64,000 bases of DNA from Alphaproteobacteria bacterium (GCA_035437825.1 DAOMYX010000001.1:113220-177219); one strand, 5' to 3'; counted from the stretch's first letter, positions 10,359 through 58,094 are shown. Notes: a model not told the origin generated them from the sequence alone. Numbers and translations are program-made.

Positions 10359-10948
10359 TGACATCCCCGCTGCACACAGCGCAGGAAGAAGAGGCCGCCA
10401 CAGCCGCCGACGAGGCGCTGATGGCGGCCATCGCTTTGGGCGATGCCAAAGCCTACGACAAACTGGTGCGTCGGCATTTGAAACGCGCCTATAACGTCGC
10501 CTACGGCATGCTCTATAATGCGGCAGATGCGCAGGATGCGGCGCAGGACGCCATGATGCGCGTCTGGATATATGCCCCGACCTGGCGCGCTGGGGAATCT
10601 GCCGTCACGACGTGGCTGCACCGCATTGTTGTGAATTGCTGCTACGATTTTTTGCGTAAAAAATCGCGCCAGCCGCAGGGTGGCGAGGTTTCTGTCGATA
10701 TAGAGGATATGACGGCAAACACAGAGCAAGGATATGCGGACGCCGAAAAGAAAAAGCGTCTGCGCGCCATGCTCCGCAGTTTGCCGGAGCGGCAGCGGAT
10801 GGCGGTAACCCTGTGTTACCTTGAAGAGATGAGCAATGCCGAAGCCGCCGCGGTGATGGGCGTGCATATCAAGGCGCTCGAGGGACTTCTGGTCAGGGCG
10901 CGGCGGGCATTGAAGCCGATGCTCGAGGCGCTGGCTGACAAAGAGTAA
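10358..10948 (+). CDS. ECF-type RNA polymerase sigma-70 factor
   Basis: Region 2: LVRRHLKRAYNVAYGMLYNAADAQDAAQDAMMRVW ... WLHRIVVNCCYDFLRKK. Region 4: LPERQRMAVTLCYLEEMSNAEAAAVMGVHIKALEGLLVRARRAL. Confidence 0.9.
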   Translation: MTSPLHTAQEEEAATAADEALMAAIALGDAKAYDKLVRRHLKRAYNVAYGMLYNAADAQDAAQDAMMRVWIYAPTWRAGESAVTTWLHRIVVNCCYDFLRKKSRQPQGGEVSVDIEDMTANTEQGYADAEKKKRLRAMLRSLPERQRMAVTLCYLEEMSNAEAAAVMGVHIKALEGLLVRARRALKPMLEALADKE

Positions 10949-11779: not shown

Positions 11780-12580
11780 TCAATGCAGGCCGGCGGCATT
11801 ATGCCCCGGCCTGTTTCTTTTTTTGATGGTTGCAGGCGTCATGACGCGGATAGCGGGGGCGATGCCGTTTTGAATGTCCTGATTGTCCAGCCTTTGGCGG
11901 TCGGCTTGCAACAGCGCCATGACCACATCGTCACGGCCGAAAGATTTTGCAAGGCTATAGGCACCGTCGCCGCCTGACGTTTTGCGCGACGGATCACTGC
12001 CTGCAGTGACAAGGGTTTTGAGGGACGAAAAATCCGGCGGGGTCAAGTCCGAGCGGAAACGTTTGACGGCTTTGGTCAGCGGTGTTTCACCGTTATTGCT
12101 TTCGGCGTGAATATCCGCGCCGCATTCTGCCAGCATCCACACAGACTGATGCGCGCCGACGCTTGCGGCATAGCAAAGAGGTGTCCAGCCGTCTTTATCG
12201 CGGGCATTCATGTCTGCCCCGCGCTGGAACAAAACCAAAAGGCATTGGTCGTTGTTATGATGGGCGGCGACATGCGTGCCGGTTTTATCGGCATCTTTGG
12301 CGCTGATAAGCTGCGGTTGGGCATCCAGTAGTTTTTTGAGCGCTTCGGCGTCCCCGAGACGCAGGGCGCGGAAATAGGCGGCTTTGGTGTCGTCGGGCGG
12401 GGGCGGTGCAGAATCCGGCGCGGGGGCGGCTGCGCGCCGGTCTGGCTGTCCCATATCGGGGCGGGCGGGGGGCGCAGCGGCGGCGGCCATATCACGGGCG
12501 TTCTGGCGGAACAGGTCGATGAGACCGCCAAATCCGAAGCCCCGTGTCTCTTTTCCGGCTTTTCCCTGATTTTGTGCCAT
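11780..12580 (-). CDS. Ankyrin-repeat protein with Pro/Ala-rich N-terminal region and basic C-terminal tail
   Basis: ANK repeats (GADMNARDKDGWTPLCYAASVGAHQSVWMLAECGADIHAESNNGETPLTKAV). No signal peptide. C-terminus is ...MTPATIKKRNRPGHNAAGLH. Start taken at ATG MAQNQGKAG. Confidence 0.8.
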   Translation of the reverse strand: MAQNQGKAGKETRGFGFGGLIDLFRQNARDMAAAAAPPARPDMGQPDRRAAAPAPDSAPPPPDDTKAAYFRALRLGDAEALKKLLDAQPQLISAKDADKTGTHVAAHHNNDQCLLVLFQRGADMNARDKDGWTPLCYAASVGAHQSVWMLAECGADIHAESNNGETPLTKAVKRFRSDLTPPDFSSLKTLVTAGSDPSRKTSGGDGAYSLAKSFGRDDVVMALLQADRQRLDNQDIQNGIAPAIRVMTPATIKKRNRPGHNAAGLH

Positions 12581-12785
12581 GTGCATCCTTATGTGACGTG
12601 TGGGGGTATAATAGCACCGCATTTAAGTTATGTCAATTTTTGAGCGCTATCTGGTCATGGTTAAGAAAAATCTTGACTCTGTCATGGCATAAGAATTATG
12701 TTGCCAACCATCTGAAAAGCCGCGCTTTTATGCCGCTATCCCGCTTTATCTAAAAATAAGCAATAATAACAAGGGAGTAATCTAC

Positions 12786-13361
12786 ATGGATATCCAACTT
12801 TCCGGTCGCAAGGTTCTGGTACTCGTTTCCAACGGCGTTGATGAAGCCGTTATGTCCACCGTTCAGCGCGATATGCTGAAAACGGGTGCTACCATCAAAA
12901 CCGTCGGCACGGAAAGCGGTCTTGTCAACAGCTGGAACAGCCAAAGCAACGGCTGGGGTCTTTATTTCCCCGTTGACCAGCAAATCGGCCAGACTCTGGG
13001 TTCCGACTTCGATGCGCTTGTTGTGCCCGCCGGCGCACGCAGCGTGCAGAAACTGGGTGCGAACCCGCATGCGGAGCGCATCATCTCCAGCTTCATCACC
13101 GCAGGCAAGCCGATGGCATTCATGGGCGATGCGGTCGAACTGCTCGCCAAAATCGAACTCGCAAAAGGCTTTACGGTTACGGGGCCCGAGCGCTCCCACC
13201 AAATCCTGGTCGCAGCCGGTGCGGTATGGAACGGCGCGGCAGAACACGTTGACGGCATGCTGATGACGGGCGACGGCGAAGATATGTCCGGCTTCATCCA
13301 GAACATGGCGGCACATATCGCCAGCGGTCCGGTTGAAGAGCAGCAACAAATCGCCGCCTAA
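12786..13361 (+). CDS. DJ-1/PfpI-like (class I glutamine amidotransferase-like fold) protein without the nucleophile Cys
   Basis: GRKVLVLVSNGVDEAVMSTVQRDMLKTGATIKTVG...DFDALVVPAGARS...GKPMAFMGDAVELL resembles the DJ-1/PfpI or catalase C-terminal domain. The protein contains no cysteine at all. SD AAGGGAG precedes the ATG. Confidence 0.55.
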   Translation: MDIQLSGRKVLVLVSNGVDEAVMSTVQRDMLKTGATIKTVGTESGLVNSWNSQSNGWGLYFPVDQQIGQTLGSDFDALVVPAGARSVQKLGANPHAERIISSFITAGKPMAFMGDAVELLAKIELAKGFTVTGPERSHQILVAAGAVWNGAAEHVDGMLMTGDGEDMSGFIQNMAAHIASGPVEEQQQIAA

Positions 13362-13382
13362 CCGGATTTACGGAGTTTTGTC

Positions 13383-14529
13383 ATGAAAAGCGAAGTCTTA
13401 GCAGCGGTGGAGGAAATCAAGGCCTCCCTCGACCTGCTGAGGAGGCATCTTTGACTGGGACCGTGCTGTCCACCGTCTTGCCGAACTGAACGCCCTCGCT
13501 GAAGACCCCAAACTTTGGGATAATCAGGAACGCGCGCAAAAAATCCTCAAGGAACGCACCCGCCTCGAAGGTCAAATCGATGGCGTGCGCGCCATCGAAA
13601 ACAACCTGAGCGACCAGCTGGGCATGATTGAACTTGCCGAGATGGAAGGCGATGCCGCACTCGTGAGTGAAGCGGAGCAATCCCTCTACGCCATCAAAAC
13701 CGACGTTGCGCGCCGCGAACTGGAAAGCCTGCTGTCCGGTGAAATGGACGGTAGCGACGCTTATCTGCAAATCAACGCAGGGGCGGGCGGTACCGAAGCG
13801 GCCGACTGGGCGGGGATTATCTTCCGCATGTATATGCGCTGGGCGGAACAGCATGATTATAAGCTCGCGCTGCTCGACAAACAGGACGCCGACGTCGCGG
13901 GCATCAAATCCGCGACGCTGGAAATTTCCGGTCCCAATGCTTACGGCTGGCTGAAATCTGAATCGGGCGTGCATCGTCTTGTGCGTATCTCGCCCTACGA
14001 TTCCAATGCCCGCCGTCATACCAGCTTTTGCTCGGTTTCCGTCACGCCTGTGGTGGATGACGATATCGACATCACCATCGACCCCAAAGACCTGCGCGTG
14101 GATACCTACCGCTCCGGCGGCGCGGGCGGGCAGCACGTCAACAAAACGGATTCCGCCGTGCGCCTGACGCATATCCCGACGGGGATTGTGGTTGCGTGCC
14201 AGAACGAACGCTCCCAGCACAAAAACCGCGACCAGGCGATGAAAATGCTGAAAGCGAAGCTGTACGAGCGCGAGCAAATGATGCGCGACGCCGAAAAGCA
14301 GCAGCGCGAAGACGAAAAGACCGAAATCGGCTTTGGCCACCAGATACGCTCTTACGTTCTGCACCCCTACCAGATGGTCAAAGACCTGCGCACGGGGCAT
14401 GATACGTCGGATACGCAGGGCGTTTTGGATGGCGACCTTGATGCGTTCCTCGAAGCATCGCTGGCGCATAAACTGAACGCCGGCAAAGACGGCGCGGGCG
14501 CGAAAGTCGCCTACGAAGACCTCGATTAA
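13383..14529 (+). CDS. prfB: Peptide chain release factor 2, needs a programmed +1 frameshift (join 13383..13451, 13453..14529)
   Basis: Frame 0 encodes [23 protein letters not shown] and hits TGA at 13452. The +1 frame continues [29 protein letters not shown]... into ORF 13585..14529, which has SPF-type ([15 protein letters not shown]) and GGQ ([16 protein letters not shown]) motifs. Confidence 0.95.
13441..13455 (+). promoter_or_regulatory. prfB: prfB autoregulatory +1 frameshift site
   Basis: Internal SD-like AGGAGG, then CAT CTT TGA C: the canonical CUU UGA C slippery/stop context. Confidence 0.9.
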
Positions 14530-14561
14530 ATTTCAATCTATTTTCAAGCAGGAGATACACC

Positions 14562-15068
14562 ATGGCCAGCGCGCATAACGCAAAACTCCCCAAAGAAGAT
14601 TTTGGCCGCGGTCTGTCGATTGCTGAAAAATTCAACGTCCGTGCCGCAGCACGCCCGAACCGCCGTGTGAAGACGGTTCTGAAAGAAGCCATCGGTTTCC
14701 TGCACGGCATCAACGGTGATATCGCCAAGGGCGCCGCCGTCTATAGCGGCAGCGCGTGGACGGGGCCCGACCTTGTTCTTGATAAAAAACAGGGGCAGGA
14801 AACCGCGCGCAGCAAAGAGCGCCTTGCCTACATGACCGGCGACGTCGGCCTGACGCTTGCGGCGGAAGATATACGCAAACTGTCCGATATCCGCCGCACG
14901 TTCAAACTGTCGTCCGACAAACAGGCGGCGGCATTGTCGATGCGCGTTTATGCGCAGGTGGCAGACGGTATCTGGCGCGGCAATGGCTTTAGCCTTGAAA
15001 AAGACGGCCAGCAACAGCCGCTGAACACGGACAAAATCCGCAGCATGGTGACGCAGCACGCGCGCTAA
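14562..15068 (+). CDS. Hypothetical protein
   Basis: 168 aa, SD AGGAGA upstream, host-like codon usage. The overlapping minus-strand ORF 14544..15059 is Arg/Ala-rich shadow. I recognise no motif. Confidence 0.55.
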   Translation: MASAHNAKLPKEDFGRGLSIAEKFNVRAAARPNRRVKTVLKEAIGFLHGINGDIAKGAAVYSGSAWTGPDLVLDKKQGQETARSKERLAYMTGDVGLTLAAEDIRKLSDIRRTFKLSSDKQAAALSMRVYAQVADGIWRGNGFSLEKDGQQQPLNTDKIRSMVTQHAR

Positions 15069-15106
15069 TCCCGCGACTGTCCGGCGGCCTCATTCACAAA
15101 AAATAA

Positions 15107-15703
15107 TCAGGGTGATTCGGGCGCGGTCTGCGGCGTTGTTTCCGCTGCGGGGGCGGTTGCATCTGCCGCTTTGCGGCGTGCGAAGACTTCTGGCGGCAGT
15201 TCCGCCGCCGTCAATTTCCAGCGCCAGTCGCGCAGGCGCAGGATGAACGTCATGCCCTTCGCTTCGATGCGGAATGTATCCGGGTTTTCAAAAAACGCGT
15301 GGTCGATGTCTTTGCGCGACAGGGGGCGTGGCTCTTTGTTCTGAATATCCTTGCCGTCAATTTTGACAAGCGCGCGGTCAAGCGCCATGCGCATGCCTGT
15401 CGGCGTGACGTAGGCATCGACGACCGCCTCTACGATTTTAGGCAGCATAACAAGGCTCGCCGCGCCGAAAATGCCGGTGCGGCCGTCCTGCCCCTTGGGC
15501 ACACGCGCGGCAAGATAGACATTTGCCTGTTCCTTCAGCGATTCACGCAGCATCGGGAAATCGACATGGGTTTCTATGACCTTTGCATCCATTTGCATTA
15601 CGCCCTTGTACAGGCGTTCCATGGCCAGATAGGGCGATGCAACGTAAAAGGCGACAAGCCCCAGCAGGGCGGCGGATACGGCGATTTTTGCAGGTGTTTT
15701 CAT
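15107..15703 (-). CDS. DUF2939-like membrane-anchored protein
   Basis: MKTPAKIAVSAALLGLVAFYVASPYLAMERLYKGVMQMDAKVIETHVDFPMLRESLKEQ matches my recollection of the DUF2939 N-terminus. Confidence 0.6.
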   Translation of the reverse strand: MKTPAKIAVSAALLGLVAFYVASPYLAMERLYKGVMQMDAKVIETHVDFPMLRESLKEQANVYLAARVPKGQDGRTGIFGAASLVMLPKIVEAVVDAYVTPTGMRMALDRALVKIDGKDIQNKEPRPLSRKDIDHAFFENPDTFRIEAKGMTFILRLRDWRWKLTAAELPPEVFARRKAADATAPAAETTPQTAPESP

Positions 15704-15749
15704 ACCCGATGATTACGACATTTTTGCCGCAAAGGGAATAGGGCGCGCT

Positions 15750-16322
15750 TTAATGGCGGCGGCGGATGGCGGGCAGCGATATCAACGGCACATCCTTCGC
15801 CGTGCCGTTGAGGCAGGCGGCGGGGCCTTCGGCTTTGTCGCGGTGTCTTTCGATGGTTTTGGCGAGCGCGTCATGGCCGCGCATCCGCGCGAGAACGGGG
15901 GCGTCATGCCCTTGCTCGCAGCTGGGGAAGGTATCCGCGCCACGCCAGAGCAAAGCTTCGGCAGCTTCTTCGGCATTTTGCCATGCGGCATACATCAGTG
16001 CGGTATAGCCGCGGCTGTTTTGCTTGTCGATGGTGGGGGCTGCCCCGTGCTGCAAAAGCAGTTTGACGATGTCGCTGCGCCGTGCCTGCGCGGCGGCCAT
16101 CAGCGGTGTGTCATCGGCGGCATAGGGCTTATCGTCCGGCTTGAATGGCTCCAGCCAGCAGGCGGCGCCGGCGCGGCTTGTGAGGGTTTCGGTGACTTCA
16201 GCCGTATTTCCGGCGCGGATAGCCTTGAAAAAGGCCTTGCGCTCCTCCGGTGTCGCGCCGGCGGTCTGGTCGAAAGCGGAAGATATGCCGTTTGCCTGTC
16301 CTGCGGTCACAGCCTGCACCAT
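15750..16322 (-). CDS. Ankyrin-repeat protein with basic C-terminal tail
   Basis: TPLMAAAQARRSDIVKLLLQHGAAPTIDKQNSRGYTALMYAAWQNAEEAAEALLWRGAD. No signal peptide. C-terminus is ...VPLISLPAIRRRH. Confidence 0.8.
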   Translation of the reverse strand: MVQAVTAGQANGISSAFDQTAGATPEERKAFFKAIRAGNTAEVTETLTSRAGAACWLEPFKPDDKPYAADDTPLMAAAQARRSDIVKLLLQHGAAPTIDKQNSRGYTALMYAAWQNAEEAAEALLWRGADTFPSCEQGHDAPVLARMRGHDALAKTIERHRDKAEGPAACLNGTAKDVPLISLPAIRRRH

Positions 16323-16527
16323 GTCGTTAAAAATTGAATTTTTTCATAATATTAAGGATTTTTCCTGCTGTCAACCCGCGCTTTGCCATGGGGGCGGAAA
16401 GGGGCATGTGCCTGAAATATGAACAGGTTTTTCCGAAAAACTGCTGGCAAAACGGCAGAGAATCCTTATGATGAGTGACCTAAATAATGACAATTTTTAT
16501 AAAGCCCACAATCCACGAGGATTTCCC

Positions 16528-19500
16528 ATGCGCCGTTCACGCTTTCTTGCCCTGACGAGTGTTTCCCTTGCTGCTGCGATGCTTCTGGCCACGACAGCGG
16601 TACAGGCAACGCAGCCCGCCGCGGTTCAGATGCTCGGCGTTTTGAAGCCGAAAGAGCAATGGAAAGTCGGCACGGTGGACAGCAGCGGCGCGCCTTATTG
16701 CGCCATGGTGGGCAAGTTCGACCAGGCCAGCACGCTGGCATTCGCGCGCAGTGCGGAAGGCTTCGGCTCCCTCGGTATCGAGTTCTATGACGACCTGTTC
16801 AAACCGGGCAAAAAATACGAAGTCACCCTGACCCTCGAAAACCTCGCCCCGCGCACATTCAGCGGGGAGGCAACGACGGCGCGCTCGCTGGTTTTGCAAA
16901 TCGGTGAAGACGATGCGCTCTATGATACTTTCAGCCGCAGCGAAACGTTGCGCGTCTCGACCTCTGCGATTGACGTGCGCTTCGCCATCAACAAATTCGA
17001 CAAGAAGTATAAAGAGCTTGTCACCTGCGCCACCGTTCTTGCGGGCCCGCAGGAGCAGGTAGAGCTGCCGCCCGCCGAAATGGCCGCAGCAGCCAAGGCA
17101 GAAGCCGAAGCCGCCGCCGCTGAAAAAACGGCCAGCGCCGAAAAACCGGCAGCACCGTTTACAAACTTTTTCCAAAGACTGCGCGCCAAGGCAGCGGGGC
17201 AGGAAGAGCCCGCAGCCACCCTTCGGCAGTATTCCGAAAGCGACATTGTCTGGAACGATGAAAAATCCGCCGCAAAAACCGCCGCGGCCGGCAAAAAAAA
17301 ATCTGACGACACCGCAGCCGTAACCCTGCCGCTGCCCAAACCGGGCACGCATAAGGGCGAAACGATTTTGGCGGCCTCCACCACGGCGGCGCCATCTGCT
17401 GTCGCAGCGCCTGCTATCAATGTGGATTCCGCCCCGCTGGCAGAAATGCCCGCGCCCGAAACAATGGATATGCCGCAGGAGCGTAAACTGCTCGCCTCCA
17501 TGGCGGTGACCGGTCATGCGGTCATGGCTGAAAACGTGGGCATGAGCGCGCGCGAGATGGAAAAAATCCAGGCCGCCAAGCTGGAGCGCGATATGGCGCG
17601 CAAGGAACAGGAAATCGCCACGCTGGCCGCCGAAACCACCAAGGCCGCACAGCAGCAGGTGCAGGAATCCGGCCGCCGTCAGGAGGCGATGCTGGTCGAG
17701 GCGAAAAACCTTCAACAGCAAATCGCCACGCTGGAAAAGTCTATGCTTGAAAAAGTGGCGGCGGAGAAAGCGGCTGAAAAATCCGCTGTTGTCGCTGCTG
17801 CTGCGCCTGTGGCAGAAGCTGCCGCCGCGGCTAAACTGGCTGATGATGCGCGCCTTGCAAAACAGCAAGCCGAAGAGCTTGCCAAAAAACAAGCCGATAT
17901 GGACAAGTTGATGGCCGCACGCGAAGCGGAAACCCGCAAGCTGGCCGAAGCCCTGAGCAAGACAGAGGCTGAATTCAACACCCGCGTCGCCACGCTGGAA
18001 AGCGAGCGCAGTGTTTTGCGCGGCCAGCTGGATACGGCTATCACCGAAAGCCGCACCGTCGTGCCTGCGCTTGAATCTGCGAAGCGCGAGGGGGATACGA
18101 AAATCCGTGCGCTCGAAGAACAGTTGGGGGCGGCCGAAGCGGCGCGTGCCTCGTTGCGCCAACAGCTGACGGATGCGGAAACCGCGAACAAGGAACTGGC
18201 TGAAAGCCTGAAGGCGCAGCAAATGGAACGCGCCCGTGCCGAAGAAGCCCTGCGCCGCGCCAGCGAGCTGGAAGCGCAGCTGGCAGCACAAACCCGTCAG
18301 GCAAAAGAGCTGGAACTGGCATTGGCCGCTGAAAAAGCAAAGCCGCCCGTGACGGTAGAAGTGCCCGTGGAAGTGCCTGCCAAGGCCGACCCGAAGCTGG
18401 CCGAAGAAAAGGCGCAGCTTGAATCGCGCCTGAACAACGCTGTCGCCGCGCGCGCGGCCGAGGCAAAACGCCTCGCCGAAGTCGAAGCTCTGCGCAAAGC
18501 AGAAGCAGAGCAACTGGCGAAGATGGAAAACGAACGTAAGGCTGAAGCAGAACGCCTTGCAAATCTGGAGCAGGAGCGTGTAGCAGCTGCCGCCCGCATG
18601 GCAAAGCTGGAGGCGGAGCGTAAGGCCGAAGCGGAGCGTATCGCCAAGCTGGATGCCGCGCGTCAGGCGGAGGAGGCTGCCAAACTGGCACAAATCGAAG
18701 CCGAGCGTATAGCAGAGGCAGAACGTATTGCGAAGCTTGAAGCCGAGCGTAAAGCGGAAGCAGAGCGCGTGGCCAAGCTGGAAGAAGAACGCAAGGCGGA
18801 AGCGCTGCGTATCGCCAAGATTGAAGCGGAGCGCAGAGCAGAAGCCGAACGCGTCGCCAAGATGGAAACCGAGCGTAAAGCGGAAGCAGAGCGCGTGGCC
18901 AAGCTCGAAGAGGAACGCAAGACGGAAGCGCTGCGTATCGCCAAGATTGAAGAAGAGCGTAAAGCAGAAGCCTTGCGCCTCGCCAAGCTGGAAGAAGAAC
19001 GCCGCCTGCAAAGCGTGCGTGCCGCCGAGCTGGCGCAGGAGCGTGAAGCTGCCCGTATGAAAGCGGACGAAGAAATCCGCCGCCTGCGTGAAGAAAAAGC
19101 GGCGCTGGAGCAAAAGCTGGCGCTTGAACAAAAACAAGCTGCCGCGCAAAAGCTGGCGCTGGAGCAAAAACAGGCCGCTGATAAATTTGCCGTGAAAGCG
19201 GCCGCGATGAAAACGGAGCAGGCGGTAGCAGCCTTGCCGGCAGTGACGCTGAAGCCTGCCGCACCTGCGCCCGTAGCCGCTGCGCGTGCCTTGCCGCCGC
19301 TTGAAAAGCGTGAAGTGGCCGCTGTGCCCGCCGTACCGCCGTCACCGGCTGTCGGGGCGCGTAGCCTGTCGCGTCTTGAGCCGGCAGCGGGTGATTCCGA
19401 CCTGACCTCGGGCGGTAACCGTGCCGAGGCTTTCCTTGAGGGCATCATGAAGCATCACCGCCCGCAAGGCACAGCCGCACCCAAAAACGCTGTGAAAACG

Positions 19501-20205
19501 CCCTCCGTGCCTGCGCCTCAGGCGGCGAAAGCTGTACCGCAGGCGGCTATGCCGTCTTCTGTCCGTCCGCAAGTTCCCGTTGTGGAAACGCCGCGTTTGC
19601 GCAATGCGCCTGCGGCTGCGGCGCCCACCGGACGCGCCGTTAGCCTTGAAACCCTGCTGGAGCAATCCGGCGTGCGCGGCGCGGTGTTTCAGCCGATGCA
19701 GCAATCGGGCGCGGAAGCTTCGCGCCAATGGTCTTTGGGTCGTTTGAGCGGTCTTTACGAACAAATGCCCGCCGCAGGCCAGCCCTTCGACCGTCTGACG
19801 CAGGATTATGTCGGGCGTTACCGCGACGATTGCCCGCAGCACCTGACGGTGAAAATGGGCAATCCCGAACAAACGCCCGCGGGTGTGGTTTCCAGCGGCA
19901 CGCTGTCTTGCGCGATGCCGGGCAATGCCTATGAAACCTCGATGTTGTTCGTGCAGTCGGGCAGCGGTTTTGCCGCGATTTTGCATTCCGGCAACCCGTC
20001 CGACGCAGCGCAGGTAAAATCGTTGGGAGATAATATTTTCTACACGCTGTCATCGTCGGCAGGGCTGTCGCCTTTACCCGCAGCAGCGGCAGCGTCCGCC
20101 GCGCCGCAAGCGCAGTATGATGCCCGCCGCACGGTCATGTCGCCGGAGCCGCCGGTTTCCGCTGCGCAGCCGTCTGGTGAATTCAATACGGTTGTTATCG
20201 AATAA
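16528..20205 (+). CDS. Very large secreted coiled-coil protein with conserved N- and C-terminal globular domains
   Basis: ATG at 16528 follows GAGGA. Signal peptide MRRSRFLALTSVSLAAAMLLATTAVQA. The central several hundred residues are A/E/K/R/L-rich heptad-like sequence, including a 14-aa repeat array. The C-terminal domain has two Cys. It is a paralogue of the next gene. Confidence 0.8.
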   Translation: MRRSRFLALTSVSLAAAMLLATTAVQATQPAAVQMLGVLKPKEQWKVGTVDSSGAPYCAMVGKFDQASTLAFARSAEGFGSLGIEFYDDLFKPGKKYEVTLTLENLAPRTFSGEATTARSLVLQIGEDDALYDTFSRSETLRVSTSAIDVRFAINKFDKKYKELVTCATVLAGPQEQVELPPAEMAAAAKAEAEAAAAEKTASAEKPAAPFTNFFQRLRAKAAGQEEPAATLRQYSESDIVWNDEKSAAKTAAAGKKKSDDTAAVTLPLPKPGTHKGETILAASTTAAPSAVAAPAINVDSAPLAEMPAPETMDMPQERKLLASMAVTGHAVMAENVGMSAREMEKIQAAKLERDMARKEQEIATLAAETTKAAQQQVQESGRRQEAMLVEAKNLQQQIATLEKSMLEKVAAEKAAEKSAVVAAAAPVAEAAAAAKLADDARLAKQQAEELAKKQADMDKLMAAREAETRKLAEALSKTEAEFNTRVATLESERSVLRGQLDTAITESRTVVPALESAKREGDTKIRALEEQLGAAEAARASLRQQLTDAETANKELAESLKAQQMERARAEEALRRASELEAQLAAQTRQAKELELALAAEKAKPPVTVEVPVEVPAKADPKLAEEKAQLESRLNNAVAARAAEAKRLAEVEALRKAEAEQLAKMENERKAEAERLANLEQERVAAAARMAKLEAERKAEAERIAKLDAARQAEEAAKLAQIEAERIAEAERIAKLEAERKAEAERVAKLEEERKAEALRIAKIEAERRAEAERVAKMETERKAEAERVAKLEEERKTEALRIAKIEEERKAEALRLAKLEEERRLQSVRAAELAQEREAARMKADEEIRRLREEKAALEQKLALEQKQAAAQKLALEQKQAADKFAVKAAAMKTEQAVAALPAVTLKPAAPAPVAAARALPPLEKREVAAVPAVPPSPAVGARSLSRLEPAAGDSDLTSGGNRAEAFLEGIMKHHRPQGTAAPKNAVKTPSVPAPQAAKAVPQAAMPSSVRPQVPVVETPRLRNAPAAAAPTGRAVSLETLLEQSGVRGAVFQPMQQSGAEASRQWSLGRLSGLYEQMPAAGQPFDRLTQDYVGRYRDDCPQHLTVKMGNPEQTPAGVVSSGTLSCAMPGNAYETSMLFVQSGSGFAAILHSGNPSDAAQVKSLGDNIFYTLSSSAGLSPLPAAAAASAAPQAQYDARRTVMSPEPPVSAAQPSGEFNTVVIE
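18460..19060 (+). repeat. In-frame 42-nt (14-aa) tandem repeat array inside the coiled-coil gene
   Basis: About 13 units of type ERKAEAERVAKLEE / ERKAEALRIAKIEE. Two roughly 90-nt stretches starting at 18745 and 18871 are near-identical (period 126 nt = 3 units). Confidence 0.85.
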
Positions 20206-50147: not shown

Positions 50148-50729
50148 ATGGCCGACAACAAGAATACTGACGATAAAAACACGGAAAAGAACGGCAAGCC
50201 GAAAAAGGACGCCGACCCCTTGGTTATGCTTGAAAAAGAGCGCAACCGCCTGCAGGAGCGCTACGACACCCTGACCGGCAAAGCGCGGGGTGAAGTGGGC
50301 GATGTCGGTTTCTGGGGTGCGGTCGGTGCGCTGGCGCTGATGGCGGACTGGACGTTTACGGGCGGACTTGGCACGGCTTTCGCGGCCTGGAGCGCGGGCG
50401 AATACGTCATGTACGCGCGCCGTGCGCGTGAAGTGGGTAAAGAGCTGAAGGTCGTCAAATCGCGCATTCAGGACATGCAGCAGGCGCGGTTCGAAGCGCA
50501 AATCCAGCAAATGAAACAAGCCCCGCAAAAAACGCAGGGCGCTGTACCCGATACAAGCTTGAAAGATGAATTCTCCCCTGCGGCGCAGGCAGAAATTGAA
50601 GCCCTGCGCAGCAAACTCGCGACGCTGGAAAAGCAGGTCGGGCAAATGCAGGAAGACAAAGCGGGCGGGCTTGATAAACCGAAATTCAAAAAGCCCTTCG
50701 GCAAAAAACCGGACGAGCCGAAATCCTGA
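50148..50729 (+). CDS. Hypothetical membrane/coiled-coil protein with Lys/Pro-rich termini
   Basis: 193 aa. Central hydrophobic hairpin (VGFWGAVGALALMADWTFTGGLGTAFAAW), a C-terminal coiled coil, and tail GGLDKPKFKKPFGKKPDEPKS. Confidence 0.55.
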   Translation: MADNKNTDDKNTEKNGKPKKDADPLVMLEKERNRLQERYDTLTGKARGEVGDVGFWGAVGALALMADWTFTGGLGTAFAAWSAGEYVMYARRAREVGKELKVVKSRIQDMQQARFEAQIQQMKQAPQKTQGAVPDTSLKDEFSPAAQAEIEALRSKLATLEKQVGQMQEDKAGGLDKPKFKKPFGKKPDEPKS

Positions 50730-50732
50730 TTA

Positions 50733-51413
50733 TCAGGCTTTACCCAGCAAATCCTTGTAAGAGGCCGCGCGCGGCGGTGTGACGGGGCGGGCATTTGCCG
50801 CGTCTTTTTGCTGCTGCACGCCTGCCTTCAAAATCTCGGCAAGGCTGAAATTCTCATGCATGCGTGCAATGTCGTAGGCCGTCTGACCTGCGTGGTTGTG
50901 CTGTTCCAAATCCGCGCCGCGGCGGATAAGAATTTGCGCGATTTCGCGCCGTCCCAACGCCGCCGCCCACATCAGCGCGGAGCGGTCGAGCATATTCAGC
51001 TGGTCCATCGCCGCGTTTTTATCGGTAAGGTTACGCACCGTTTTCACGCTGCCTGAAATGGTGGCGAGGATAAGGGGCGTGTTGCCTTCGGAATCTTTGG
51101 CGTTTACATCGGCGCCTGCCTGTATCAACAGGTCGGCGATATATTCCTGCCCTTTGCGGGCGGCAATCAACAGGGGCGTGCTGTCATGGGCGTTGCGTAT
51201 TTCAAGCGCCGCACCGCGCGCGATAAGGTCGGTAATTTTTTGGCTATTGGGCGTGTTTTGGGCTACTTCCAGAAGCAGCGACATGCCGAGCGCTTGCTGC
51301 TCCGGCGTATAACTGCGCTGCGGCGCGGTTTGTTGCTGCGCTGCGGGGGCGGCGGCAGTTTCACCGCGCTGGCCGCTGACGGCCTGATTGAAACGTGACC
51401 CTTGTTGGCTCAT
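50733..51413 (-). CDS. Ankyrin-repeat protein
   Basis: ATG at 51413 (MSQQGSRFNQ) is preceded by GAGGA; the ORF track starts 2 codons earlier at TTG. ANK repeats: DSTPLLIAARKGQEYIADLLIQAGADVNAKDSEGNTPLILATISG. Confidence 0.8.
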   Translation of the reverse strand: MSQQGSRFNQAVSGQRGETAAAPAAQQQTAPQRSYTPEQQALGMSLLLEVAQNTPNSQKITDLIARGAALEIRNAHDSTPLLIAARKGQEYIADLLIQAGADVNAKDSEGNTPLILATISGSVKTVRNLTDKNAAMDQLNMLDRSALMWAAALGRREIAQILIRRGADLEQHNHAGQTAYDIARMHENFSLAEILKAGVQQQKDAANARPVTPPRAASYKDLLGKA

Positions 51414-51620: not shown

Positions 51621-52262
51621 CTAACGATTCAGGCCCGCATTTTTGGCGCGGCGTTTCAGCGCCGGCATGTGCAGCGGCGCAACGTCTTTTTCCAGCGGGA
51701 CGCCAGCGGCCAGTGCGGCATCAAACGCCGCCTTCGCCGCGCGGCGCTGTGTGCCGAGCGATTGGATATCATTTGCGATATGCGGCTTGCCGTTATCTAT
51801 GGCGAAATCCGCGGCGGTTTTTCCGTTCGGGCTTTTGATGTCGGTGCGCGCCCCCGCATTGACCAGCAGCGCCACAACGTCGCGCGCCCCCAGATTGGCC
51901 GCCCACATCAGGGGCGTCATGCCCTTGAAGCCCGTGTCGTCAAGGCGTGCTTTGTGTTTTATCAGCAGCGCGGCGGCGTCCGCGTCTTTGAGCAGTACCG
52001 ACATCATCAAGGCTGTCGCGCCGTTCTGGTTGCGTGCTTCGGTATTGGCGCCGGCCTCCAGCAGCGGGCGGATGGCGTCGCCGCAGTGGCTGGACGAACA
52101 GGCCACAAGCAGCGGCGTGCGTTTTTGAATGTCATCGCCTGTTTGCTCAAGGTCCGCACCTGCGTCAATCAGGCGTTTGATTTCGGCCATATCTGGCGCA
52201 GCGCCGCTTATTTCCTTCAGCAGCGCAAGTCCGTCGCGGATATGTGCTGCAAGGGTTCCCAT
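51621..52262 (-). CDS. Ankyrin-repeat protein with basic C-terminal tail
   Basis: Start taken at MGTLAAHIRDGL, whose ATG overlaps the stop of the upstream 66-aa ORF (TGATG). ANK repeats: RTPLLVACSSSHCGDAIRPLLEAGANTEARNQNGATALMMSV. C-terminus is ...APLHMPALKRRAKNAGLNR. Confidence 0.75.
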   Translation of the reverse strand: MGTLAAHIRDGLALLKEISGAAPDMAEIKRLIDAGADLEQTGDDIQKRTPLLVACSSSHCGDAIRPLLEAGANTEARNQNGATALMMSVLLKDADAAALLIKHKARLDDTGFKGMTPLMWAANLGARDVVALLVNAGARTDIKSPNGKTAADFAIDNGKPHIANDIQSLGTQRRAAKAAFDAALAAGVPLEKDVAPLHMPALKRRAKNAGLNR

Positions 52263-52462
52263 CAGCGCGCGGGACTTTCGCCGCCGCGGACGCGCTTTTT
52301 GATGGCGGGCGGCTGAAGTACGGCGATGCTGTGCTCTTCGCCATCGTTGTTTTTTGCAGGTGTTACCGCAACCGCTGCAGCTGGCGCGGATGGCGACGTT
52401 TTCTTGGGCGCAGGTGGAATGTAACCATCCCACATTTCTTTCAACTTGTATTTGCCCAGCAT
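52262..52462 (-). CDS. Small (66 aa) Pro/Ala-rich protein with basic C-terminal tail
   Basis: MLGKYKLKEMWDGYIPPAPKK...IAVLQPPAIKKRVRGGESPAR. AAGGA lies upstream of its ATG. It is coupled to the ankyrin gene downstream and sits 21 nt after the 87-aa ORF. Confidence 0.5.
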   Translation of the reverse strand: MLGKYKLKEMWDGYIPPAPKKTSPSAPAAAVAVTPAKNNDGEEHSIAVLQPPAIKKRVRGGESPAR

Positions 52463-52483
52463 GGCGTGTTCCTTTTATGCGGA

Positions 52484-52747
52484 TTATTTGGGGCCTTGCG
52501 GGCCGCGTTTTTTGACGTTGATGGGGGGCAGCAGGTTGATGTTTGCGGGTTCCTGCTGCTTCATTTTAAAATCGGCGGGCGCATGTTCGTTCCAGATTTC
52601 GCCTGTGGGGTCGATGCTTTTTTGCAGGCCGCGCAAACGGCTATGCGCTTCGGAACCGCGGCGCCAGACACTGTGGTCGTCGCTGTAGTCGTAGTACCAG
52701 TCATGCGATTTAAGCAGCTTGATATAATTTTCCTGTTCAGGCGTCAT
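52484..52747 (-). CDS. Small (87 aa) protein with basic C-terminal tail
   Basis: MTPEQENYIKLLKSHDWYYDYSDDHSVWRRGSEAHSRLRGLQKSIDPTGEIWNEH...NINLLPPINVKKRGPQGPK. GAAAGG lies upstream of its ATG, and codon usage is host-like. Confidence 0.55.
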   Translation of the reverse strand: MTPEQENYIKLLKSHDWYYDYSDDHSVWRRGSEAHSRLRGLQKSIDPTGEIWNEHAPADFKMKQQEPANINLLPPINVKKRGPQGPK

Positions 52748-52805: not shown

Positions 52806-52828
52806 ATCTTGACATAATATGTCAAGAT
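52806..52828. promoter_or_regulatory. Perfect 10-bp inverted repeat (3-nt spacer) carrying TTGACA on both arms
   Basis: ATCTTGACATaatATGTCAAGAT, located between the stop of the HTH gene (52830) and the 87-aa gene start (52747). Confidence 0.4.
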
Positions 52829-52829
52829 G

Positions 52830-53108
52830 CTATTCGGCTTTATCCGATAATTGCGCGGCTATCCAGGTCAAGACATGCGGCCGGACAGTCGGCTGGGGCA
52901 GGTTTTTAAGGGTCGTCCAGCGGTCAACCGCGCCCTTGGACAGGCCGAAGCCCGCGCGAAAGGCCGTTTCATCAAGCCCAAAGCGGGTCAGGGCGGTATA
53001 GACAGAATCTGCAAAATCGCTGTCGCTGATGTTTTGCGCAGCGGCAAGGGTGGCCAGCCTTCTTAAAAAAGCTTCCTTTTCCAGCGATTTAACATTTGAT
53101 GGCGACAT
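52830..53108 (-). CDS. Small putative helix-turn-helix DNA-binding protein
   Basis: 92 aa from the ATG at 53108, which is the C-terminal part of the 353-aa track ORF (the rest is antisense shadow of the GNAT-like gene). FGLSKGAVDRWTTLKNLPQP resembles an XRE/Cro-type HTH. Confidence 0.5.
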   Translation of the reverse strand: MSPSNVKSLEKEAFLRRLATLAAAQNISDSDFADSVYTALTRFGLDETAFRAGFGLSKGAVDRWTTLKNLPQPTVRPHVLTWIAAQLSDKAE

Positions 53109-56412: not shown

Positions 56413-57267
56413 ATGGGCTGGATAAAAACCCCTGAAGAAAAAGCGGCAGCACGTCAAAAACGTCTCGATAAGGGGCTGTTCAAGGACGATACGCGCAAGG
56501 TCATCGCCGCGCTTGATGCGGGCGCCAATCCGAACGCGCGCAACGAATACGGCTATAGCGCTATTTCCTATCAGGCCTCCAGCCGCCGCAATGAAGCGGT
56601 GAAGGTACTGCTGGCGCGCGGCGCAGACCCGAACGGCAAAACTGATAACGATTATTCCGCCCTGATGGCCGCGGCGTCGCATAATGATGTGGAGCTGGCA
56701 AAGCTTTTGTGCGACCACGGCGCGCATATTAATGCGCAAAGCCACGATGGCCGCACGCCGCTGCACCATGCCGCCTATTGGGGGCGTGGAAAAATCATCC
56801 AGTTCCTGCTGTCGCAGGGGGCGGATACCACATTGCGCGATGGGCGCATGAACAGCGCGGCCGATATCGCGGCCAAAGAAAACTATCCGGGCGTTGCGGC
56901 GCTGCTGCGCGGGGAATTGGACGAAGTGCCCAAAGAAGATGCTGCGCCGGCCGCCGGCGTATGGCATTTGACGGCGCCCGATGAAATTGCGCGTATTGAT
57001 GACAAGCCGGCTATCGGCTATCGCATTACCGAGATTTTTAACTTTGGTGCAGGGGTATATAACCGCATCGCGCGTAACCTTTCGACCGACCACGAAAGCC
57101 AGTCTATGCGGCTGTTCGATGAAATGCACGGCAGTCCGATATTGCAGCAGGCAGCAGATGCCTTTGTGCGTTTGGGCGGCGATGCTGAAAACGCTGCTGC
57201 CGCCCAATCTTTGACGGCCAAAAAACCCGCAGGCCTGACGCTGCACCCAAGCGGCAGGAGCGCCTGA
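56413..57267 (+). CDS. Ankyrin-repeat protein with conserved unknown C-terminal domain (tandem copy 1)
   Basis: ANK repeats: GANPNARNEYGYSAISYQASSRRNEAVKVLLARGADPNGKTDNDYSALMAAASHNDVELAKLLCDHGAHINAQSHDGRTPLHHAAYWG. C-domain: WHLTAPDEIARIDDKPAIGYRITEIFNFGAG... Confidence 0.8.
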   Translation: MGWIKTPEEKAAARQKRLDKGLFKDDTRKVIAALDAGANPNARNEYGYSAISYQASSRRNEAVKVLLARGADPNGKTDNDYSALMAAASHNDVELAKLLCDHGAHINAQSHDGRTPLHHAAYWGRGKIIQFLLSQGADTTLRDGRMNSAADIAAKENYPGVAALLRGELDEVPKEDAAPAAGVWHLTAPDEIARIDDKPAIGYRITEIFNFGAGVYNRIARNLSTDHESQSMRLFDEMHGSPILQQAADAFVRLGGDAENAAAAQSLTAKKPAGLTLHPSGRSA

Positions 57268-58094
57268 TGGGTATGTTTTTCGACAGCAAACAGGAAAAAC
57301 TCGACCGCCGTGTTTACAAGGCGATTGACGCCAAGAGCGTTGCCAAGCTGCAAGAGGCGCTCGACGCCGGCGGCGCGCTTGAAGCCAACGGCTATTGGGG
57401 CTGGGTTTATCATGCGGTGAATGCCCGTTTTGACGACGGCGTTTCGGTTCTGCTGGAACGCGGTGCCCCCGTGGATGCGCGCGGGCCTTACGGCTATACG
57501 CCGCTGCGTATCGCGGCCACCAGCGGTCACCGCGATATCGCCAATGTTTTGCTTGCTGCTGGGGCGGATATTCACGCCGTTGATGAAACGGGCTGGACAC
57601 CGCTGCACGGTGCCGCGCATGCGGGCAAGATGGACATGATTGTGTTCCTGCTGGAACATGGCGCGGATATGCAGGCGCGGGATAAACACATGAATACCCC
57701 TGCCGATATTGCGGCCAAGCAATACCCGCGCATTGCCGAATACCTGTGGGAAAAAATGGGCGTGGGGCAGGAAAAGCAGGAAACGGCGCCGCTGGAGCCC
57801 GGCTGGCATCTGACAGGCGATGATGAAATCGCCCATGTGTCCGACAAACCGGCGATTGGCTACCGCTTTACGGATGTTTTTAATTTCAGCGCCAAAATCC
57901 ACACACGGATTGCCGAAAACACCCGGACGCATGCCGAAAGCAGCAGCGTGAAAACATTCGCGGATTTGGAAGATAGCGCGCTGCTGGAGCAAGCTTTCGA
58001 AGCCTTCCGCGCACGCGGCGGCAAGGCGGATGATTATACGCTCGACAAGCCTAAAGCGCAGCCGGGGTTGCACCGGGGCGGCCCTCAGCCCTAA
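57267..58094 (+). CDS. Ankyrin-repeat protein with conserved unknown C-terminal domain (tandem copy 2)
   Basis: Its start overlaps the upstream stop (TGATG). ANK repeats: GYTPLRIAATSGHRDIANVLLAAGADIHAVDETGWTPLHGAAHAGKMDMIVFLLEHGADMQ. C-domain: WHLTGDDEIAHVSDKPAIGYRFTDVFNFSAK... Confidence 0.8.
   Translation: MGMFFDSKQEKLDRRVYKAIDAKSVAKLQEALDAGGALEANGYWGWVYHAVNARFDDGVSVLLERGAPVDARGPYGYTPLRIAATSGHRDIANVLLAAGADIHAVDETGWTPLHGAAHAGKMDMIVFLLEHGADMQARDKHMNTPADIAAKQYPRIAEYLWEKMGVGQEKQETAPLEPGWHLTGDDEIAHVSDKPAIGYRFTDVFNFSAKIHTRIAENTRTHAESSSVKTFADLEDSALLEQAFEAFRARGGKADDYTLDKPKAQPGLHRGGPQP

Follow-up and report, generated by a model that had tools for sequence, protein, structure and literature searches.

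The 64-kb window analyzed here, which is the whole stretch of DNA DAOMYX010000001.1:113220-177219 (G+C content 57%), encodes five proteins that end in variants of one 12-residue motif, which we term the type-1 tail: the ankyrin-repeat proteins A, B, and C, the 87-residue protein D, and the 66-residue protein D2 (Table 1). Genes D, D2, and C form a minus-strand operon (51621-52747), the three products of which all carry the motif at their ends. Gene C truly starts at 52262, with an ATG that shares bases with the stop codon of D2 (TGATG), and D2 is preceded by a ribosome-binding site (AAGGAA) 8 nt 5′ of its ATG.

The window proteins recur, identical in sequence, in GCA_002334985.1, a metagenome-assembled genome from bioreactor sludge. 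Because loci encoding relatives of one window protein bear labels such as 'uncultured Micavibrio sp.', the source appears to be an uncultured Micavibrio-like bacterium. The members of Micavibrio in culture prey epibiotically on other bacteria (PMC3189940); the molecular action of such predators on their prey is not known (reviewed in PMC12428579).

Table 1. Positions of the type-1 tail genes, their tail cores, the palindrome upstream of the D-D2-C operon, and the genes with other conserved termini (positions are those of the window; scores are with the type-1 tail profile)
Feature	Position	Strand	Description
Gene A	11780..12580	-	Ankyrin-repeat protein, 266 residues, type-1 tail; Pfam Ank_2 5.9e-24; HRI75461.1; C-terminus ..IRVMTPATIKKRNRPGHNAAGLH
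Tail core of A	11816..11851	-	IRVMTPATIKKR, 11 residues ahead of the stop; 28.1 bits
Gene B	15750..16322	-	Ankyrin-repeat protein, 190 residues, type-1 tail; Pfam Ank_2 1.2e-14; C-terminus ..VPLISLPAIRRRH
Tail core of B	15756..15791	-	VPLISLPAIRRR, 1 residue ahead of the stop; 17.6 bits
Gene C	51621..52262	-	Ankyrin-repeat protein, 213 residues; HRI75504.1; C-terminus ..VAPLHMPALKRRAKNAGLNR
Tail core of C	51648..51683	-	VAPLHMPALKRR, 8 residues ahead of the stop; 34.7 bits
Gene D2	52262..52462	-	66-residue reading frame, type-1 tail; HRI75505.1; C-terminus ..IAVLQPPAIKKRVRGGESPAR
Tail core of D2	52292..52327	-	IAVLQPPAIKKR, 9 residues ahead of the stop; 36.1 bits
Gene D	52484..52747	-	87 residues; small helical HDWYYDYSDDH domain (phage family phrog_16661) followed by type-1 tail; C-terminus ..INLLPPINVKKRGPQGPK
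Tail core of D	52505..52540	-	INLLPPINVKKR, 6 residues ahead of the stop; 30.5 bits
Palindrome	52808..52826		Perfect 9-1-9, CTTGACATA-T-TATGTCAAG; overlaps the TTGACA promoter box of the D-D2-C operon
Gene G	50148..50729	+	193 residues; conserved tail ..GLDKPKFKKPFGKKP..; not type-1
Gene H	50733..51413	-	Ankyrin protein just downstream of C; N-terminus MSQQGSRFNQAV.., C-terminus ..YKDLLGKA; not type-1
Gene E	56413..57267	+	Ankyrin protein, tandem paralog of F; own tail ..SLTAKKPAGLTLHPSGRSA at C-terminus; not type-1
Gene F	57267..58094	+	Ankyrin protein; family-specific tail ..YTLDKPKAQPGLHRGGPQP at C-terminus; not type-1

Definition, Specificity, and Conservation of the Type-1 Tail

The core of the type-1 tail conforms to [IVL]-x-[PVL]-[LMI]-x-x-[PIA]-x-[ILV]-[KR]-[KR]-[RP], and its 12 residues align without gaps across the five tails and their orthologs. 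Positions 1, 3/4, and 9 are constantly hydrophobic, and a proline within positions 5-7 and a basic triplet complete the pattern. In the window copies, the core is separated from the stop codon by between 1 and 11 variable residues, among which G, P, and R are frequent.

A tail profile built from 22 tails was scored against 2,615 six-frame open reading frames (ORFs) of at least 40 residues from the window and related loci. At 17.6 bits and above it recovered the five tail families only, with every such match ending 0-4 residues from a C-terminus; the top match outside the families (14.3 bits) was a spurious antisense ORF, and the remainder scored below 10 bits. Among these six-frame ORFs, the motif was found neither in housekeeping proteins nor internally in real proteins, and related loci that were added later contributed only further A and B orthologs. 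The profile was also rebuilt without one family at a time, and in each case the omitted tail was equaled or beaten by only 0-7 of 3,006 background ORFs; that of D2 still scored 19.6 bits and was beaten by none. Tails outside the training set scored 25.9 bits (a B ortholog, at locus L024), 20.6 bits (P0060), and 12.5 bits (P0062). No PDB chain carrying the motif was found, the sole profile match being a chance one (E = 0.39).

The tail is kept in orthologs down to approximately 50-55% identity and is weaker in the most divergent orthologs of C. Orthologs of A (P0055-P0062, 51-58% identity) retain ..TPAIRVMKPAHIKKRNRPDxSGL.., those of C (P0019-P0028) retain ..GMPLEKDVTPLHLPALKRR.. followed by variable residues, and those of D (P0001-P0010) retain ..LLPPMNVKKRG.GGP.., with ..LPPIKLKKPGGPG in more distant lineages. 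A concatenated A+B query, which did return A orthologs, retrieved no orthologs of B; the B ortholog in L024 (6299-6862), which ends ..ITLMKPPTVRKRTGAP, was located via synteny. The D2 ORF is kept in L004, L010, and L030-32. Column conservation in the tail core equals that of the folded domains, and the N-terminal linkers drift, a pattern of purifying selection on the core. Identity among the cores at the DNA level is low (10-22 of 36 bases), and the similarity between instances is therefore held at the protein level and does not reflect a recent copy.

The carriers themselves turn over among related genomes: D2 is missing from L007, L015, and L016, which are more distant, B is missing from L023, and C is truncated in L010. 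The last of these (10467-10727) encodes a C ortholog of 86 residues, in which an internal deletion has removed the motif and fused the second repeat to the final residues (..NQNGASLNR).

The tail also behaves as a separable module. The nearest non-orthologous homologs of C have Sec signal peptides and no tail. Protein D matches phage proteins in PHROG (phrog_16661) and BFVD, and its homologs of 61-68 residues, which are located in phage early regions (L025, L027-L029), have no tail either. On these matches, the folded part of D belongs to a small-phage-protein family and has here been recruited to a bacterial chromosome and supplied with the tail; since the phage homologs lack it, the tail is an add-on specific to this bacterial lineage. 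In the AlphaFold2 (AF2) model of C, the ankyrin domain and a helix have predicted local distance difference test (pLDDT) scores above 85, and those of the tail (residues 191-213) fall from 63 to 39; the model of D has helices at residues 3-55 and a tail with pLDDT 53-59. The tails of C and D are thus predicted to be disordered and to lie outside the folded parts, and the D2 protein is apparently disordered.

The combination of a short conserved peptide, a disordered end, unrelated carriers, selection, and modularity makes it highly probable that the tail serves for docking or addressing and is recognized by a single receptor common to all its carriers.

These results bear on an earlier note on this DNA, which had described A and B as bearing the same tail. 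Both genes end as that note wrote, Pfam confirms their ankyrin repeats, and the quoted codons are exact; what they share is a pattern and not an identity, the two cores having 2 of 12 residues and 15 of 36 bases in common in the gap-free register. By sequence, the A and B tails are best described as two instances of one motif. The list of tails given there was right for A and B but incomplete: the strongest members are the products of 51621-52262, 52262-52462, and 52484-52747, which lie outside the interval that it described. Its view that the recurrence reflects a functional module and not a local duplication is supported by the low DNA identity, by the non-homologous carriers, and by the position of the tails among the best conserved segments of their proteins. 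The two checks that it proposed, on conservation in orthologs and on internal or housekeeping occurrences, agree with this view, the tails being kept in orthologs of A, B, C, D, and D2 and the profile scan giving no matches of the second kind.

Other Conserved Termini and Neighboring Genes

Genes E, F, and G had been listed in the same note as carrying looser variants of the tail. This assignment does not hold: the type-1 profile gives their tails at most 1 bit, each tail is well conserved but only among the members of its family, and F and G share only the stretch L-[DE]-K-P-K, with reciprocal profile ranks of 11-22 of 2,615 and scores of 3-4 bits. The E tail matches neither the F nor the G tail profile. 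From these tail comparisons, one motif is common to A, B, C, D, and D2 only. The end of H is strictly conserved in its orthologs (..[SA]YKD[LM]LGK[AV] at the C-terminus), and this peptide is a candidate second terminal motif. As the tails of E, F, G, and H are family specific, the lineage has several ankyrin families with conserved terminal peptides.

As read by eye from its sequence, protein G has an apparent hydrophobic (membrane) segment and a coiled-coil region. E and F have in common an uncharacterized C-terminal domain of ~100 residues after the repeats, and their tandem sits inside a tyrosine-catabolism cluster, between the genes for maleylacetoacetate isomerase and fumarylacetoacetase; there are two copies here and three in related genomes (L004 3750-6288; L007 575-2971). 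Conservation within families extends to some N-terminal peptides, i.e. MSQQGSRFNQAV in H, MG[WMIFL]F.. in E and F, and ..FGxGSLRDLFNQxA.. in A. A cross-family N-terminal motif F-N-Q-x-A, suspected by eye, was rejected; it is conserved in the H family, and its profile misses the N-termini of A, B, and C.

By Pfam, six genes of the 64-kb window encode ankyrin-repeat proteins (A, B, C, H, E, and F; 11780-58094), which is unusually dense for a bacterium other than an intracellular symbiont. The synteny of all six with housekeeping genes is conserved in related genomes.

The palindrome upstream of the D-D2-C operon is unique in the window, with none expected by chance, and from its sequence and position it is likely an operator. 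An operator common to all tail genes was rejected, the palindrome being confined to the D operon. Just upstream of it lies a conserved 92-residue gene (52830-53108, minus strand), the product of which matches no family and reads like a helix-turn-helix protein; this gene and the palindrome look like a dedicated repressor-operator pair.

Genes A and B are each directly preceded by a consensus sigma-70-type promoter, TTGACA-N17-TATTAT (12608-12636 and 16346-16374, respectively). Adjoining gene B is the gene for a 1,245-residue protein (16468-20205) with an N-terminus that by eye resembles a hydrophobic signal peptide and with long runs of AEAERxAKLEAERKAEAER-type repeats; its position is kept in L023 and L024. 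The release factor 2 gene prfB (13384-14529) contains the classical site of programmed +1 frameshifting, CTT TGA C (13449-13455), with AGGAGG ahead of it.

Possible Receptors of the Type-1 Tail

Mechanistically, the tail would dock as a short linear motif carried by a disordered extension of the C-terminus, with three aliphatic anchors and a proline kink followed by the Lys/Arg triplet. A groove on the receptor would read the hydrophobic anchors and an acidic patch would read the basic triplet, and the tail would act as a common address tag that brings otherwise unrelated modules to one shared receptor. We infer that a single receptor reads the tail and that this receptor is an export machine; an export or translocation machine is, tentatively, the most likely receptor class. 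The tail would then be an uncleaved C-terminal secretion signal, and its carriers would be effectors that the Micavibrio-like cell sends towards cells of its prey or host. Predatory Micavibrio-like alphaproteobacteria may possibly use a hitherto unrecognized 12-residue C-terminal address peptide in this manner, exporting ankyrin proteins and domesticated phage proteins to prey, or else directing them into a compartment.

Export is ranked first because all carriers lack an N-terminal hydrophobic signal region and have basic, disordered C-termini, because ankyrin repeats and small proteins of phage type are commonly used as effectors, and because the nearest non-orthologous homologs of C use Sec signal peptides instead of the tail. 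It is further favored by the tagging of all three products of one operon, by the gain, loss, and truncation of carriers between related genomes, and by the exit of other alphaproteobacterial ankyrin proteins via C-terminal type IV or type I signals. Ankyrin proteins secreted by type IV or type I systems are known in Rickettsiales and Legionellales, and Anaplasma AnkA, Ehrlichia Ank200, and the Orientia Anks have C-terminal type IV (VirB/D4-type) or type I signals. The type-1 tail proteins resemble these effectors in their ankyrin repeats, in the lack of an N-terminal signal peptide, and in what would be an uncleaved signal in a disordered C-terminus, and their tails are net positive, as are those of type IV effectors. 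In contrast to the compositional signals of type IV and type I effectors, the type-1 tail is a fixed 12-residue motif. The unstructured, basic C-terminus (20-50 residues) of type IV (VirB/D4-type) signals is found in the carriers, with pLDDT below 65 over the modeled tails of C and D and a net charge of +2 to +5 over the last 25 residues. Type I signals in Ehrlichia and Orientia follow a rule by which the last 50 residues are rich in LDAVTSIF and poor in KHPMWC; the corresponding fractions in the carriers are 0.34-0.54 and 0.18-0.32, with a core rich in K and P. The high density of ankyrin genes is consistent with export, as are the Dot/Icm-like type IV system reported in seven marine Micavibrionales genomes (PMC9418006) and the complete type I system of M. 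aeruginosavorus, which is switched on at prey attachment (PMC3189940).

Several observations weigh against export. Neither the window nor 670 kb of related DNA yielded a secretion-system gene. The carriers found so far are ankyrin proteins or their operon partners, with no hydrolases or toxins among them, and their genes lie in conserved synteny among housekeeping genes and not in islands. A global search with a 27-position tail profile against 1.84 billion representative proteins (E ≤ 0.001) returned the C, D, and D2 families only and no further carrier families, because the motif is too short for a database of that size. The K/P-rich tail seems unlike type I signals, and its basic character is unlike the acidic E-block signals of Dot/Icm substrates. 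Cultured Micavibrio have type I and type II secretion, with type III and type IV reported absent, and M. aeruginosavorus ARL-13 is the cultured relative in which the latter two are reported to be missing (PMC3189940).

A cytoplasmic hub, to which the tail would tether its carriers as the SspB tail tethers SspB to the N-domain of the ClpX unfoldase, is an unlikely receptor, ranking next after an export machine. Under this explanation, the ankyrin proteins and the small proteins would be adaptors, anti-adaptors, or tethered substrates, which fits the SspB-like design, in which a disordered linker joins a binding module to a hydrophobic-plus-basic peptide at the C-terminus, the syntenic, chromosomal residence of the carrier genes, and the appearance of D2 as a bivalent linker protein. 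We built the alphaproteobacterial SspB tail consensus, ..VVSLDxFRKK(x), which lies 0-2 residues from the C-terminus, from PDB 2NYS and 34 metagenome loci. By eye it resembles LISLPAIRRR of B, and like the type-1 tail the ClpX-binding (XB) tail of SspB is a C-terminal tethering peptide of ~10 residues that follows a disordered linker, with two aliphatic residues, a spacer, a hydrophobic residue, and three basic residues. As an identification of the type-1 tail it was nevertheless rejected, as the profiles fail both ways: no type-1 tail ranks in the top 40 of the 2,615 ORFs with the SspB-tail profile, and the type-1 profile gives the SspB tail -3.8 bits for the best domain and -1.3 bits for the whole peptide. 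In contrast to the type-1 tail, the XB tail (C-terminal ..VVSLDAFRKK) is confined to a single family, and known hub tails usually mark one family or process and not ankyrin proteins. The FtsZ C-terminal peptide (D-I-P-A-F-L-R-[RK]-Q type) was likewise rejected, the type-1 profile scoring approximately zero on FtsZ peptides (-0.2 to -3.5 bits, best domain, for Caulobacter and E. coli; +0.2 bits for B. subtilis). The IscU LPPVK/Hsp70-type site and the SH3, WW, and PP1 docking motifs, which were compared by eye only, were set aside for inconsistent registers.

Packaging of the carriers in a shell of the encapsulin or capsid type, with the tail bound to its inner face, seems improbable. Encapsulin targeting peptides (PLTVGSLRRGG and NTGGDLGIRK, consensus SDGSLGIGSLKRS) are C-terminal, follow a flexible linker, combine aliphatic anchors with K/R, and are borne even by cargo whose genes are remote from that of the shell (PMC7925596; PMC8346489). 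The type-1 tail is like family 1 encapsulin targeting peptides in these respects, and C-family tails such as PLNLPSIKRR resemble PLTVGSLRR with the G swapped for P. Unlike those peptides, e.g. PLTVGSLRRGG of M. xanthus, it has P-A or P-P in place of GSL, and its carriers are not enzymes; an ankyrin cargo would be unprecedented. With the GSL core missing, this candidate was rejected, a profile of published targeting peptides giving no match to A, B, or C and -3.7 to -4.6 bits for D and D2. No shell gene lies beside the carriers, as judged by the lack of Linocin_M18 in the Pfam annotation of their neighbors, and none was found in 670 kb of related DNA by tblastn or phmmer with a T. maritima encapsulin query sequence. 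As far as the supplementary text of the encapsulin census goes, the name 'Micavibrio' does not appear.

The tails could also be ligands of the ankyrin grooves in the same set of proteins, acting in autoinhibition, in head-to-tail chains, or in the regulation of C by D and D2, an explanation to which we attach little probability. The type-1 tails all belong to ankyrin proteins or to products of an ankyrin operon, and the eukaryotic ankyrin domains of ANKRA2 and RFXANK bind extended P-x-L-P-x-[IL] peptides, which ..SLPAI.. and ..HMPAL.. in the tails resemble. That register is not exactly kept, however, being off by one residue in C (P-L-H-M-P-A-L) and lacking the proline two residues before the leucine in LPAI of B. 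AF2 leaves the C tail undocked on its own domain (from an alignment of 15 sequences only). A, B, and C are not close paralogs, and a shared groove specificity would therefore not be expected.

A non-specific polybasic anchor, in which KKR and nearby hydrophobic residues would stick to an anionic membrane or to nucleic acid, would account for the positive charge of the last 25 residues and for the variable, G/P/R-rich region after the core, but is scarcely probable. A charge patch needs no constant hydrophobic/proline register, yet this is what the five families have kept over a long divergence; the prolines speak against an amphipathic helix, and the basic cluster is reduced to KK in some orthologs.

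A eukaryotic nuclear localization signal (NLS), for which the earlier note had proposed assays, is very improbable: KKRNR, KKRVR, and KRRAK look like the cores of monopartite NLSs, and certain intracellular bacteria have ankyrin effectors that reach host nuclei, but the basic cluster spans three residues, K-[KR]-x-[KR] is present in A and D2 and absent from D (KKRG, with KKP or KKS in some orthologs), B (RRRH), and most C orthologs, the SV40 NLS was rejected at ~0 bits with the type-1 profile, the conserved hydrophobic and proline positions are left unexplained, and the Micavibrio-like lineage is known for predators of bacteria.

The motif thus appears, from these profile comparisons, to belong to none of the families testable here, although a C-terminal address or tether peptide is a known kind of element. 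Proteins that join ankyrin repeats to a C-terminal F-box/PRANC or SOCS-box module are found in poxviruses, in Orientia, and among the eukaryotic ASB proteins. They have in common with the type-1 tail proteins a variable ankyrin binding module and a constant C-terminal recruiting module; the F-box, PRANC, and SOCS-box modules, however, are folded ubiquitin-ligase recruiters of 40-60 residues, whereas the type-1 tail is a bacterial, disordered peptide of 12.

Implications for Micavibrio-like Bacteria

No effector set or delivery signal is described for epibiotic predators in the literature that was searched. If the type-1 tail is an export signal, it would give a handle on both the effector repertoire and the delivery machine of an epibiotic predator. 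If the receptor is instead a cytoplasmic hub such as ClpX, the system would still be new, its ankyrin repeats with a protease-tethering tail forming a bacterial counterpart of the ankyrin/F-box and ankyrin/SOCS-box substrate receptors. The tag can serve as a search key for the full cargo set in complete genomes, as a bait for the receptor, and as a handle for reporter fusions, and the motif offers a tangible way into the biology of an uncultured bacterium related to the epibiotic predators.

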